Below are positions 33,938 to 61,550 of a DNA stretch of 64,000 nucleotides, piece by piece. The DNA comes from Eledone cirrhosa (taxonomy: Eukaryota), in the NCBI GenBank assembly GCA_964016885.1, contig OZ024747.1, positions 49,786,001-49,850,000 of the forward strand, in the 5' to 3' direction. The translations under genes were made by a program, and so were the position numbers. The notes under the pieces were generated by a model that worked only from the letters and a program-made list of their open reading frames with translations, was not told where the DNA came from and did not search any database. Within the stretch, counting starts at the first letter, position 1. Each line of letters begins with the position of its first letter.

Positions 33938-34850
33938 CAGATAATATCAAAATCTCATAGATTCAATATTATGTGAGATAATTAGGTGAGGTAAAGAATT
34001 ACCATGAAAATATAATAGTAAATATGCAGTAATGTAAATGGTAAAGGGTTAAGGATATATACATGTGTTTGTAAAATACTCAGTCACCTGCATGTTAATT
34101 TCATGAGCAGGTTGTTGTTCTGTTCTGTTGATTAAACAACTGGAACACACTTCATCAGAACTGATAGAGGTACAATAACAACAAAAACATAGATATGAAA
34201 CAACATAACAAAACAACAAAACAAACATGAATAGTATCGAAACAATTCCAGAACGAAAGCTGGAAGCTGTAAAACATTCAATAAATACAATTATGCTAGG
34301 TGTTGAAGATTGGCAGTATGAAGACTTCCTTGGCAATATACCAATTTCTTTTGTTCATTGTCAGAGAAGAAACAAAACAAGCAATAGATAAATTCTACTA
34401 AAAGTCATATTAAATTTGATATGAGGAATCTATTGAACATTTTACTGATATGTTAGGTCTTTATAATAATTTTAGTCTACAGAAATTGTCATTTAGAATG
34501 GTCTTCTGCAGTGAAAAGAAAAACCAGAAACCAAAAAAGAAAATAAAGAATGAAAGAATCGTTTAAAATATAACCTCAATACAAATTTTATTTCATAAAA
34601 CTAGATATTGGAAATCTCTTCTGCATAATCTCTAACCAGCTTCATATATATATATATGCATTTAGGTTTGCTGCTTCATCACTGGATAGAACTGGTCATT
34701 TTGTATAGTCAACCGTGATGTAATATTAGAAAACACACTCGACATAATGCAACTCACCCATCTTCGTTGGTGGTGCGTGAACGGAGTTAATTATTATTGA
34801 GTAAAATGACAGGAGGCTGGACTGGGGAAATTCCTTAAAGATTTATTATA

Positions 34851-34910
34851 AACACTATACACATTTCAATGACCGGGTTCTGCAGGAACCTGGTGACATC
34901 ATCAGGTGTT
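34851..34910 (-). ncRNA. Type I hammerhead ribozyme motif (Penelope-type, minimal stem III)
   Basis: Minus strand: AACAC-CTGATGA-tgtcaccaggttc ctgca gaacccggtcatt-GAAA-tgtgta-TA-GTGTT; stem I AACAC/GTGTT; base of stem II imperfect. Confidence 0.65.
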
Positions 34911-35030
34911 ATGAAATTTATCTAATAAAGGAATGCAATAATGGTAGACACAATCCAAGGGGCTGAACAGTAGAGAGAAATGTTTAAGATCTGATGGTGG
35001 CCAGAGCCAGCAGTTGCCAGTCTATAAATG

Positions 35031-35160
35031 GGAAAAGAGTCAGGACCCCGACGGCTGAGCTCCGGCCGTTCAACAGCTATATCTGAACTAAACCTGTAAC
35101 TGGTTCGGATCTAGCTGTCGAAACGACCAGAGCTCAGCCGTCGGGGTCCTGACTCTTTCC
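35031..35160. repeat. Long inverted repeat/hairpin, ~60-bp arms with ~10-nt loop
   Basis: AAAGAGTCAGGACCCCGACGGCTGAGCTC is paired with its exact reverse complement GAGCTCAGCCGTCGGGGTCCTGACTCTTT; the inner arms pair imperfectly. Confidence 0.9.
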
Positions 35161-35241
35161 TATTACCCACTCTACTACCCTAAGTATCGAGTACTCTGGT
35201 GCATTATGGTCCACCTGGTTCCTTACCCCACTTTCTTCGTT

Positions 35242-35427
35242 TTATATATATATATATGTATATATAGGATAAAGATGATGATGATGATAATGATAATATA
35301 CATACATATATATATATATGTGTGTGTGTATGTGTATATATATATATATATATATATATATATATATATATATATGTGTGTGTGTGTGTGTATGTGTGTA
35401 TATATATATATATACACACACACACAG
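35242..35427. repeat. Compound (TA)n/(GAT)n/(TG)n/(CA)n microsatellite
   Basis: Direct reading. Confidence 0.95.
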
Positions 35428-35764
35428 TGCAAACACTATCAAAGTTAAGAGTGCTTCCATGTTTATCATATTTTTGTGTCATTAGTAAATTCAATATAAT
35501 GATTGAAGTTAGACTTTGAATCAAGTGGTTTGATAAGAACTTAAAATATATTATTTGTATTCAAATAAATTATTCATGTCTGTTCTCCCTCTTAGTATAG
35601 AAGAATGGATGCAAAACAGTGATGATGATGCCATAATGTATAAAATATAGTAAGGCAGAGATTTGAAGCAGCATATTTCAAAGAAAATCTCATTTATTTT
35701 TAGATGATTACAATTAAGTTGAATATTATACATTTAACAAGCAATGATATAAAGGTACAGCAAC

Positions 35765-36105
35765 CTCCCTATTGTTGGTGACACGATAATAAACCCCTAG
35801 TATACTCTGTAAAGTATTTGGTGATAAGAAGTGCATCCCATCCTGGAAAACTTGGCAAAAGGTTGAGAAGTGTTTTCAATTACATAAAGGGCATGACAAC
35901 CTCCCTAGAGATGATGCCACAATATAATGCACCCAGCACACTCTGTAAAATGGTTGGTGGTAGGAAGGGCATCTAACCATAGAAAACTTGCAAAACAAAG
36001 GATGAAGGGGACTGTTCTGGGAAGGAAGTAACACCAAATAGTACTGATTTGGTCTGTGACAACCTGTCCAACCATGCCATGGAAAAACAGACATTAACTG
36101 ATGAT
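35765..36105 (+). mobile_element. Degenerate family A SINE body, partly duplicated
   Basis: GCACCCAGCACACTCTGTAAAATGGTTGGTGGTAGGAAGGGCATC...AACCATGCCATGGAAAAACAGACATTAA..GATGAT. Confidence 0.65.
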
Positions 36106-58430: not shown

Positions 58431-58479
58431 AGCATTCTTGAGGTCAGGTTTGAGGATGACCTTGGGGGACAACATTTGT

Positions 58480-59945
58480 GTGGCTCGCAGATCCAGAAGC
58501 TGAGCCTCAGGGAATCCCTGATTCACAGGATATCATTATGCAGCTGTGTACCTGTCGAAAAGGAGGTTAAGGCATTGAGCCAGGCACCGCTGTGGGGTTA
58601 TGAGGCTGAACAAAAACATGCAAAGCTTTGCTCCTTGAGCTGACTCGTTAGCCTGTCTGAGGCCACATCACACTGGAAGGCGTCCCATATGCTCTGGAGG
58701 GATTTGACATCTACAGGTAGAAGAGGAGAAGGGACTTTTCTGGGCAGAATCTGTACCAGTTCTAAGTCTTGCATGTGGCCTCATGTTCCACAATCACAGT
58801 GGATTCAATTATGTTGTGGAGAACCCTGTTGATGAGGATGCGGCAAGAGGATACCGACGAAAGAAACGCTAGCAAAGCCAGCAAGACTGGAGACCAGAGA
58901 CCAAAGCCATCATTTCTAACAGATAAAGTGGCCTGTTGCCATCCAAAGTCATCAAACCTGGCATTGCATATCACCTCAGCTGCCACTCGGATACAAGTAT
59001 TGAGGTCAGTGAGGAGAGATGTGTGGCTGTAGCTAGGAGCACTATGAAGTGTGTAGAGGAACTTTGGCATAACAAAGCAGTTCTTCAACAGGAAAACAGC
59101 TAGATGGGTTTCAATTATGCCCAATCTGCTAATGAGGGTCGTGAGCTGCTGGAGCCAGGACCTGATGGTGGAGCAGATAGCCAGCAGAAAGATTGGCAAC
59201 CCAAGAGTGAGGACATCTCCTTTCGGGGTCACCTGTACCTAGCAGAGAATGAATCGCACATCTGAGATGGAGGTTGCAAAGCCCTCTGCATTATAGTTGA
59301 CATTTACCACCTCTCACTTGGACGAGTTGACCTTGAGGCTGATTCCTGCCAGAGGAGGAACCACTGATCACAGGTCGTGGCAGACAGTTTCCATAGGCAT
59401 GCCCAACGTGGCATCATCCGGGTACCAAACATTGAAAAGGGCCATGATGGTCTGAACAATGTGGTCTGTACTGAGAGCAAAAAGGAGGAGGCCCAAAACG
59501 TCACCCTCTTGAACTCCAGAGGCTGAAGGTATGACCATGTCAGTAGCAAGGAGCATGCTTGGGGATCCATAAGAACCAGGTAGGCCAGTGGGTAGACAGA
59601 GAGGGCTCGTCTGAGCCAGGCCTTGATCAGATGGTCACATCATAGGCAGTTAAAGGTATTCTTCATGTCAAGCTTCAGAATGAGGTGCCTGGCATGAGGT
59701 ACCAGTTCTGGTGAGCAATTGTTGAAGAACTGCCTAGCTACATGTGTGGCTCTCTCATACACATTGGACACATCGAACCGTAGTTGCACCGGGCTGAGCT
59801 CCTTGCCCAGTTCAGGTGTGATGGACCTGCAGACCACCTTAGCAGTCAGCCTCTGGATGACATTGCTCACAGCAATGGGGTGTATGCCACCCTCTTTATT
59901 CCTGAGAGTGCTTAGGTTGGCTGAAAAGCAGAGGCCTAGGGTACC
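58480..59945 (-). pseudogene. Decayed CRE-like non-LTR retrotransposon, fragment A (RT + thumb)
   Basis: GGIHPIAV..QRLTAK, PVQL, LKLDMKNTFN, GVQEGDVLGLLLF, WYPDD, WQQATLSV..GFGL, HSGAWLNA. Confidence 0.8.
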
Positions 59946-60012
59946 ATGATTTGAACCACATAAAGATTTGATACTTTTTGTTATTTTCATTATTGCTGAG
60001 ATTACATTAGTG

Positions 60013-60260
60013 AAGGTGCATAATGTAGTGGTTAGAGTGTTGAGCTCACGATCATATAGTTGTGAATTCAATTTCCAGTGTGTTGCCTCCTTGAGCAAGA
60101 CACTTTATTTCAGTTGCTTTAGTTACACCTTCTCACACATTATGTAGCACTGAATCTCCCTGAGAACTACGTTAAACATGCACTTGTTTATGAAATACTC
60201 AGCTGTCACTTGAACATTAATTCCACTAACAGGCAGCTCCATTGATTGGACCAGCTGGTT
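60013..60260 (+). mobile_element. Degenerate tRNA/CORE SINE, third body type
   Basis: GTAGTGGTTAGAGTG..TGTGAATTCAATT..CCTTGAGCAAGACACTTTATTTCA; the 3' body is related to 34045-34150. Confidence 0.7.
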
Positions 60261-61030
60261 CAACAACAATAACAACATATACTAACAATTCTTTGCTGAT
60301 ATTTCATCTTCCTCCACTCACCAAATTAGGTTTCAAGCAGTCCAGAAACAAAACCCGTCAAAAATTGTTTTTCAAACAACAAAATAATAGACATTATTTT
60401 TGTTGTATTCATTATTGTTGACATTACATTAGCCTCTCATTAATCCCATCCAATTTCTGTTAACCCACAATGGCCCTAAATGTTATCATTAAGTTATTCA
60501 AACTAGATGAAAAAGAATGTTGTGACGTATGTCTCGACAGATTTGTCAAAGCTTAGTTATTTATTAAAGACTATCAAAAGGAATTTTAAAACTTCATAAG
60601 ATATGTTCATCGATATATAAGGTTTCACTTACGATTCCATCTGTGTACATATTCTTCTATAGAAGAATATGTACAATATATCATGTTTTTTTTATGATAT
60701 ATGGCTCTTTCCCTCTATATATATAAACATATATCTTTTAATTTGGTTATTATGGCTGTAGATAGCTTCTTGAAGTCTGTTCCTCAAATTCTCTTTCAGA
60801 AAGAGAATTTGCTTCAAAATCACTAGACGTATCTGAGGAACTTGCGAATCCAGAGTCAGGTTCGATCCACAAACAGATCACACCTGTTCGCCGGAGAAAC
60901 AATTGTAGTACGTAATATTAAGGCTATTATTTTTAGCATATCCACTCACACCACTTCTAACGTCCAGCGCATGAGGTGAGATATTTATTTGTGTGTCTTT
61001 TAGCTGTATGTGTTTGTTCCATTTAATCTT

Positions 61031-61118
61031 ATCTCTCGCTGAGGAAAGCCTACGGATTATCTGTTACAAACAAATTTTCAGGGCGAAACAGATTAAATCT
61101 CTAATCTGTCTGAAAGAT
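61031..61118 (+). ncRNA. Type I hammerhead ribozyme motif with a full 7-bp stem III and GUC site
   Basis: ATCTCTCG-CTGAGGA-aaGCC...GGC-GAAA-CAGATTA aatctc TAATCTG-TC-TGAAAGAT. Confidence 0.75.
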
Positions 61119-61550
61119 GAAATAGTTATTGAGACGGTCTGTATATATATTCTATATCTTCTGTTTGGTTCAGGTTAAATTTATCAAACCAATGTGGTAT
61201 TGTAACCCTCGTAATTTTAGACACACAATTTACTGTGTTTATTTCTACATATATTATTATATAATGCTCAGTATTTATACTTTGAGCTTGTTAATTTCAG
61301 GGTATCAATATGAGTTAGTAATTCTATTTTATTTGTATAAATATATGTATAAATATATATATATATATATATATATATATATATATCTGCTGCTGCTACT
61401 ACCTGCCTAACTAACTCTCTCCTCCTCTGGCGCATCCCAACACACCCTGCCATTACCCCACCACCACTGTCCTTCTAGCCCTCAATTTTCCCACCGTTAT
61501 GGATGGATGAGCTGGGAATACACGAGCAACTCTGAATCAATAGATGAAAT

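Follow-up and report, generated by a model that had tools for sequence, protein, structure and literature searches.

Hammerhead-bearing blocks beside (TA)n in Eledone cirrhosa as likely 3' ends of several Penelope-like element families

The closest described relatives of the repeats considered here are Penelope-like elements (PLEs) of the Hydra clade. In Craig 2021 (PMC8557442) this clade is recognized by a diagnostic set of protein motifs (RWK-like, DKT, CxCX5C, CxxC and CxH), Hydra-1_Obim of Octopus bimaculoides combines a preference for (TA)n with a hammerhead ribozyme, and non-autonomous PLE derivatives such as Chlamys MRC1 are described. The main text of an Octopus vulgaris repeat annotation gives 31 recently active Penelope-like families and does not contain the words 'Hydra' or 'ribozyme'. 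The class itself, hammerhead-bearing Hydra PLEs in (TA)n, octopus included, is already published; here we report new families. They come from a 64,000-nucleotide stretch of the Eledone cirrhosa genome (the window; assembly GCA_964016885.1, contig OZ024747.1, positions 49,786,001 to 49,850,000, forward strand), where a preliminary description, made from the letters alone, saw recurring non-coding modules bounded by (TA)n, each with a hammerhead, alongside a Penelope-like element.

We suggest, with a probability of roughly 0.88, that the blocks represent PLE 3' ends, truncated or inverted on the 5' side, from several families with a predicted hammerhead each, and that target-primed reverse transcription likely copied them into (TA)n. 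Behind this reading stand the family identity of the pieces, open reading frames (ORFs) upstream for six families and none for two, a fixed 3' end on (TA)n, a family-specific tail, and the order of parts in full copies. Of the window, taken from an assembly of 3.0 Gb, satellites and low-complexity sequence make up about 36 kb; our analysis concerns the other 27 kb. Among named proteins, the closest match to the element in the window comes from an argonaut octopod (41% identical, with 63% of the query covered).

Composition of the blocks and their parent elements

Each block served as a genome-wide probe, with 40 matches scored per block; the candidate totals below are first-look totals and not copy numbers. 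Family links were made by walking upstream, in the sense of the hammerhead, through matched loci. The pieces are as follows.

34655-35023 (-): M1 3' end, ORF-less PLE-type family; 3' junction on (TA)7 at 34644-34657; 6314 candidates
35034-35241 (+): M8 extreme 3' end and tail, Hydra-type coding family; inverted arm 35034-35158, tail hairpin 35169-35192
36118-36234 (+): 117-nt piece of an unrelated repeat; 1107 candidates, 40 scored
36243-36428 (+): M2 3' end, Hydra-type coding family; 3632 candidates
36446-36812: M3, minus-strand 3' end (36446-36670) plus inverted plus-strand arm (36667-36812); 2339 candidates
44627-44908 (+): M4 3' end, CCHH-type coding PLE; 2924 candidates
45051-48219 (-): M6, 5'-truncated Hydra-clade PLE copy; ORF remnant 46797-48218
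48961-49328 (-): M9 repeat; 49-nt terminal direct repeat, period 314 nt; 3' end on (TA)20
60785-60917 (+): M7, piece of 3' end, Hydra-type coding family; 1767 candidates
60916-61339 (+): M5, one unit of an ORF-less PLE-type family; 3728 candidates
34644-34657, 35243-35256, 36104-36119, 36427-36446, 36812-36827, 44617-44626, 44909-44930, 60716-60725, 61353-61386: TA runs bounding the blocks

As judged from these matches, the blocks do not form one kind of module: they are the 3' ends, cut short on the 5' side, of different PLE families, all of them highly repetitive. All modules were repetitive in the genome-wide search (2339-6314 first-look candidates), and positions 1-369 of the M1 block probe are shared by its candidates. 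The preliminary description was right that TA runs bound every block and that the blocks lack coding capacity: the only frames of at least 100 aa that touch them are read-throughs of microsatellites. It had, however, taken each block as a single module, and three of the five (34658-35241, 36120-36427 and 60725-61345 in its delimitation) are composites of two unrelated repeats. The first (34655-35241) joins M1 (-) to M8 (+), the second (36118-36428) joins the 117-nt piece to M2, and the third (60725-61339) joins M7 to M5. The M3 block belongs to one family, a minus-strand end plus its own inverted arm. In the window M2 and M3 finish on one shared TA run; M4 and M6 point towards one another from the two sides of a single microsatellite. 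Elsewhere the 117-nt repeat stands after (TATC)n, in tandem there, and runs into the body of a longer element (L147-L160); we take it to be the 5' end of a long interspersed element (LINE). Three contig sets from one sample, examined over 60450-61335, gave repeat depth, identical family junctions and no empty site.

Judged by what lies upstream, there are at least eight PLE families, six of which end protein-coding PLEs and two of which are ORF-less PLE-type elements; both halves of the earlier suggestion, PLE termini or non-autonomous elements, thus hold. Recovered motifs tie five families (M2, M3, M6, M7 and M8) to ORFs of Hydra type with reverse transcriptase (RT) and GIY-YIG, and one, M4, to a CCHH-type PLE. 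A single ORF with RT and GIY-YIG was found for M6 (750 aa) and the M4 parent; for M2, M3, M7 and M8 we recovered ORF pieces.

The motif at 45093, which had been said to end the Penelope-like element, does belong to such a copy, M6 of the Hydra clade. The window copy is 92.5% identical over 3170 nt to a full-length copy (L226) and consists of the C-terminal part of RT, a CxCX5C linker, GIY-YIG and a long 3' untranslated region (UTR). The M6 protein probe gave 103,235 candidates, 97 of them scored; the 96 non-self matches are 89-97% identical, many in frames of ~750 aa. In another full copy (L227) the hammerhead lies 188 nt ahead of the ATG and is repeated 4062 nt later, for a unit of 4062 nt. 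Full copies have the order pseudo-long terminal repeat (pLTR), tail, body and 3' end, with a direct pLTR plus an inverted copy in L227 and an inverted copy in L226. The N-terminal part of M6 contains RIRWRAF (RWK-like) and SDKTNN (DKT) and is by eye collinear with Hydra-1_Obim. Besides the CxCX5C linker, M6 has CxxC and CxH around the endonuclease (EN) domain and no CCHH; one linker cysteine is changed in L132, and the linker is intact in L131 and L141.

The other coding parents were recovered in part. For M2, 5 of 20 loci have an EN-domain match on the same strand ~1 kb upstream, and CxxC and CxH are present; for M3, an ORF with the CxCX5C linker lies upstream in L059 and L183. M7 shows ORF end, 3' UTR, hammerhead and (TA)n in sequence in L224, the single copy read, where the linker is frameshifted. 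M8 shows a Hydra ORF with the linker set, 3' UTR, U3-A8 hammerhead, tail and (TA)n in L261. The N-termini of these four parents lie outside the recovered sequence, and their Hydra typing is by recovered motifs. The M4 parent has an ORF with RT (YVDD) and GIY-YIG ~450 nt upstream (L093, L096); Pfam matches its GIY-YIG at E=3e-6 and RVT_1 weakly, and in the GIY-YIG domain Cys and His are positioned as in the CCHH motif. As a separate observation on M2, part of its 3' end recurs in antisense ~21 times in tandem (period 51 nt) in one locus (L223, G000:C13:16600657-16603805), by its sequence a minisatellite built from a PLE end.

The two remaining families appear to have no ORF. Four natural hammerhead-to-hammerhead units of M1 (1956, 2005, 2122 and 2273 nt) are mutually 72-83% alike across most of their length, contain no ATG frame above 129 aa and have no tblastn match to 25 PLE proteins, and 20 loci around the start of the M1 body gave no match to two PLE proteins. 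That body begins at M1's own tail, which together with the lack of an ORF rules out a long 3' UTR of a coding element; a fixed 5' start, hinted at by three loci, was also discarded, as the shared sequence extends further. Two same-strand M1 hammerheads occur in 4 of 7 loci checked, and no such pair is in the window. The M5 unit is 463 nt with a longest stop-to-stop frame of 65 aa; the family's own tail stands ahead of the unit start in 10 of 23 loci, and a probe for the end-tail-start junction gave 535 candidates, with all 40 scored at least 94% identical. A Hydra ORF beside M5 in L229 was considered as its parent and rejected, being a separate M8 copy beyond a TA run.

These data bear on a different reading, in which the blocks would be independent non-LTR retrozymes that are transcribed, cleave themselves, circularize and reinsert as whole (TA)n-bounded modules. 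M5 fits this best, with its 463-nt ORF-less unit, its stable helix III and its junction in 40/40 scored matches; the Li 2026 preprint derives retrozymes from PLEs, and animal retrozymes yield circular RNA in mussel, coral and axolotl (Cervera 2020, PMC7229834). Against this, six of the eight families run upstream into PLE ORFs, three blocks are composites, and two same-strand hammerheads were found in just 1 of 25 M5 junction loci (none in the window), so that long tandem arrays are not the rule. We therefore regard retrozymes as a very improbable account of the blocks.

Hammerhead motifs and their conservation

The motifs of the window are listed from core start to cleavage base.

34905-34856 (-): M1 hammerhead, minimal type I, CUGAUGA core, AUA site
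35120-35146 (+): M8 hammerhead, 3' half only, GUC site
36331-36375 (+): M2 hammerhead, AUA site
36722-36752 (+): M3 hammerhead, U3-A8 core UUGAGAA, GUA site
44687-44715 (+): M4 variant motif (full shape 44683-44718), non-canonical first core box
45150-45101 (-): M6 hammerhead
60833-60907 (+): M7 hammerhead, long branched helix II, GUA site
61039-61110 (+): M5 hammerhead, 8-bp helix III, GUC site

A type I core with three helices (CUGANGA or UUGANAA...GAAA...UH) was found in M1, M2, M3, M5, M6 and M7. All six motif positions first proposed stand where they had been placed; the inventory had overlooked the full hammerhead at 60833-60907 (+) and the half at 35120-35146 (+). The CUGANGA core assigned to the motif at 36722 needs correction, as the core there is UUGAGAA (U3-A8). 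The M1 motif has a 2-bp helix III with a self-complementary loop and a C-C mismatch in helix II. In the M5 copy of the window, two changes (61111 and 61114) that are uncommon among other M5 copies weaken helix I. The M9 hammerhead (~49093-49130) is decayed in the window, and its relatives carry both C3-G8 and U3-A8 cores.

After exclusion of 10 duplicate or window loci, the core is intact in 22 of 33 copies of M1 and 34 of 42 rows of M2, and the U3-A8 core is present in 19 of 25 M3 copies. The M4 motif (44682-44719) had been called degenerate; its variant core is exact in 16 of 33 family copies and the canonical CUGANGA occurs in none of the 33. With two extra bases ahead of the U3 core and without C3 and A9, it is a family-wide non-canonical core and not a decayed copy.

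Could the motifs be chance matches in AT-rich, palindromic repeat DNA? Helix III is just 2 bp and AT-rich in the minimal forms, and an Rfam scan of the window, proposed earlier as a check, returned 25 matches at E<=1 with no hammerhead among them. A descriptor, written after the motifs were known and not catching those at 36722 and 44687, nevertheless found 5 motifs, the overlooked one at 60833-60907 among them, in the 27,435 bases outside satellites; 60 block-wise dinucleotide shuffles averaged 0.28 motifs and never gave more than 2. The position is also fixed near the 3' end of each family and changes are compensatory across families, and we consider chance a practically negligible explanation. 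On the fetched loci (L001-L227) the same descriptor gave 206 matches in 811 kb, with many more hammerhead families near TA runs, some of them with a very long helix II; these loci overlap and were picked around hammerheads, so the figure is not a genome-wide density.

Covariation was assessed between families and not within them, where it is uninformative because copies decay once inserted. Both core boxes are invariant across 14 family representatives, as are the AUA site and the C on the 5' side of the C-C mismatch, and 12 of 14 named pairs change on both sides across families. The covariation score is 0.763; shuffling lowers it to 0.327, and sliding to no more than 0.176. The stem covariation looked for in the preliminary description is thus strong between families. 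Among 127 short-helix-III descriptor matches, which contain duplicates and are M2-rich, helix II step 4 is C-C in 108 and a different pair of pyrimidines in 17. All six minimal motifs have a helix III segment that is self-complementary throughout, a signature of dimers according to Cervera and de la Pena 2014 (PMC4209133). C3-G8 is swapped for U3-A8 in M3, M8 and among the M9 relatives, with the catalytic pair kept.

A further view, which concerns function only and is compatible with our reading of the blocks, is that the hammerheads are vestigial or protein-binding folds and not RNA cutters in the life cycle. M4 is widespread despite a core without C3 and A9 and with two extra bases before it, and a two-base insertion at the equivalent place impaired a natural hammerhead (Perreault 2011). 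Work on one reconstituted PLE found that insertion in vitro does not require hammerhead cleavage, that this cleavage depends on protein, and that none of the RNA-seq reads starts at the cut site (Frangieh 2024); the minimal hammerheads of PLEs are poor cleavers in vitro (Cervera 2014, PMC4209133). The invariance of the core boxes and AUA site in 14 divergent representatives, and the U3-A8 swap that retains the catalytic pair, argue for function, and we consider the vestigial view rather unlikely.

Junctions, tail hairpin and proposed mechanism

In all eight families the 3' end is followed immediately by a TA-type run more often than the 9.8% seen at random places within the same loci: 27/37 ends for M1, 31/69 for M2, 22/24 for M3, 8/34 for M4, 24/40 for M5, 31/86 for M6, 14/25 for M7 and 17/29 for M8. 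These counts exclude 27 duplicate or window loci from 227, and those of M2 and M6 overlap, their probes cross-matching. The (TA)n enrichment of the flanks expected earlier is thus borne out at the 3' ends. The remaining 3' ends mostly run on into a family-specific tail, and the 5' sides, in the copies read, are truncations, inversions or neighbouring insertions. It is the 3' junction alone that is tied to (TA)n, and the block from one (TA)n to the next is not a unit.

In the first 50 nt past the usual 3' end, M1 (3 ends), M2 (23), M5 (7), M6 (36), M7 (8) and M8 (9) have a hairpin in the tail, RCTC-N(11-16)-GAGY, whose outer bases match; the background is 0.84% per 50-nt window. It is common to coding and ORF-less families; it is absent from all 34 M4 ends, and no M3 tail was seen in 24 M3 ends. 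The coral and sea-cucumber sequences Hydra-2_Amil, Hydra-1_Ajap and Hydra-2_Ajap (supplement of Craig 2021) show it by eye as well. The evidence for pairing is modest, as the outer pair alone varies (A-U or G-C) and the search pattern demanded its match. The main text of Craig 2021 (PMC8557442) does not contain the words 'hairpin' or 'stem-loop', and our literature search found no account of such a tail signal for the Hydra clade. In a Poseidon element, RT starts internally in a stem-loop and the tail is the stretch between two start sites (Frangieh 2024). The same paper notes a Drosophila element whose tail is needed for endonuclease recognition, and a DNA-level role of the tail is therefore a live rival to an RNA signal.

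Tentatively, and at somewhat less than even odds, we propose that RCTC-N(11-18)-GAGY may be a clade-wide Hydra cis signal behind the RT start that hitch-hikers of 463 nt and 2 kb keep for copying, that the hammerheads may form a sub-type with C-C at helix II step 4, and that the coding M4 may have spread with a core lacking C3 and A9. If so, the tail signal and the core variants would be a natural series with which to probe recognition by the PLE enzyme and the need for hammerhead cutting.

From PLE biology, the formation of the blocks can be pictured as follows. The GIY-YIG domain would nick (TA)n, and RT would begin within the element RNA, just ahead of the tail. It would mostly halt early or fold back, giving ends of 150-450 nt; these would keep the hammerhead because it sits 50-250 nt from the RT start site. 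Each insertion would leave TA tracts that are targeted again, and we suspect that ends pile up because left-over tracts are hit anew. The ORF-less M1 (~2 kb) and M5 (463 nt) may borrow a Hydra-type enzyme via the shared tail hairpin. Hammerheads are predicted to cut read-through transcripts of full elements to unit length, six of them only as dimers and that of M5 as a monomer. Copies of more than one unit could be explained equally by a unit-length circle or by a read-through tandem transcript. Every fragment in the window has a single same-strand hammerhead of its family, and a circle needs two; the solo fragments are most likely inert by-products.

Several points weigh against this account of truncated PLE ends. 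A target-site duplication cannot be seen inside (TA)n, and the support is sequence analysis, with cleavage, expression and enzyme activity as predictions. Pfam and Protein Data Bank (PDB) sequence searches with the 750-aa M6 protein returned nothing significant (nor did Pfam with the ORF remnant of the window), so the clade of M6 is assigned from motifs, by-eye comparison and unnamed homologues. The apparent lack of an ORF in M1 and M5 was read in 4 complete units plus 20 loci and in 25 plus 23 loci, respectively, of thousands. Since the 14 representatives are related to one another and were selected with a descriptor that demands pairing, their paired fraction is partly circular. When the window copies were folded freely, most motifs did not reach the full three-helix form, as expected for motifs of this kind.

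Neighbouring repeats and comparison with known systems

The rest of the window is largely repetitive. Positions 1-28459 are a 48-bp satellite (~594 copies, 95% matches); 48-nt satellite-like units are also embedded in dispersed repeats (33533-33636, 42077-42181), and the fetched loci contain 53 matches to a 150-nt probe, so the satellite may derive from a dispersed repeat. A 2.4-kb CAC/ACC-rich low-complexity tract followed by (GAT)n occupies 28484-30961. Two LINE copies with AP endonuclease, RT and a PHD-type finger (Pfam), presumably of RTE type, lie at 37052-40337 and 61548-64000; the former has an internal 105-bp duplication and, beyond a TA run, an inverted copy of its own 3' end. A short repeat with a tRNA-like head forms an inverted pair, 98-99% identical and 8 kb apart, at 40321-40623 and 48388-48683. 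Abutting the 5' end of M9, a 46-bp satellite (49335-54902, ~123 copies) has no match in the other fetched loci; as a hammerhead it was ruled out by eye, having GAAA and a possible helix III and no helix I partner. Decayed RT-like reading-frame pieces at 57016-60104 (-), without a Pfam match, resemble what we take to be another non-LTR element.

The hammerhead-bearing PLE ends form a very abundant class that is easily under-annotated, as Rfam does not pick up the motifs, nor Pfam the main protein. The hairpin common to the tails and the core variants (U3-A8 and M4) bear on how the PLE enzyme chooses its RNA and on what the hammerhead is for. Our literature search found no account of these particular families or variants; bioRxiv supplements and Lunse 2017, on PLE hammerhead variants, were outside its coverage, and Lunse 2017 may already describe the M4 core or the C-C mismatch.

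As far as recovered, the Hydra-type families resemble Hydra-clade EN+ PLEs in their single ORF with RT and C-terminal GIY-YIG, in the RWK-like, DKT, CxCX5C, CxxC and CxH motifs, in (TA)n insertion, and in the type I hammerhead near the 3' end, pLTR, tail and inverted 5' copies. They differ from the published Hydra elements, mostly below 3 kb, in that M6 is 4.06 kb with a long 3' UTR and a hammerhead sequence unlike that of Hydra-1_Obim, and in that at least five families occur here within 27 kb. Neither the helix II C-C mismatch nor the long branched helix II was seen in the table of Craig 2021.

Like the minimal PLE hammerheads of PMC4209133, the motifs described here have a short palindromic helix III, a long helix II, a U3-A8 variant and an extra or unpaired base after position 9, and they are mostly solo, from truncated PLEs, with opposite-strand pairs 100-700 bp apart. 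The long helix III of M5 and M8 is given in that paper for fungal and protist PLEs, and the M4 core matches neither descriptor. The M4 parent itself is like canonical CCHH PLEs (Neptune, Nematis, Penelope/Poseidon) in its RT with YVDD and its GIY-YIG with CCHH-like Cys and His, and differs in that its linker cysteines form no exact CX2-5CxxC and its hammerhead core is non-canonical.

M5 and M1, finally, are like animal non-LTR retrozymes and Chlamys MRC1 in lacking an ORF and in having a type I hammerhead, a head-to-tail junction and a probable PLE origin. They differ from retrozymes in that their copies, known here from DNA alone, are mostly of 1.1-1.3 units and not arrays, and M1 at ~2 kb lies above the 51-972 bp retrozyme range of the Li 2026 preprint.

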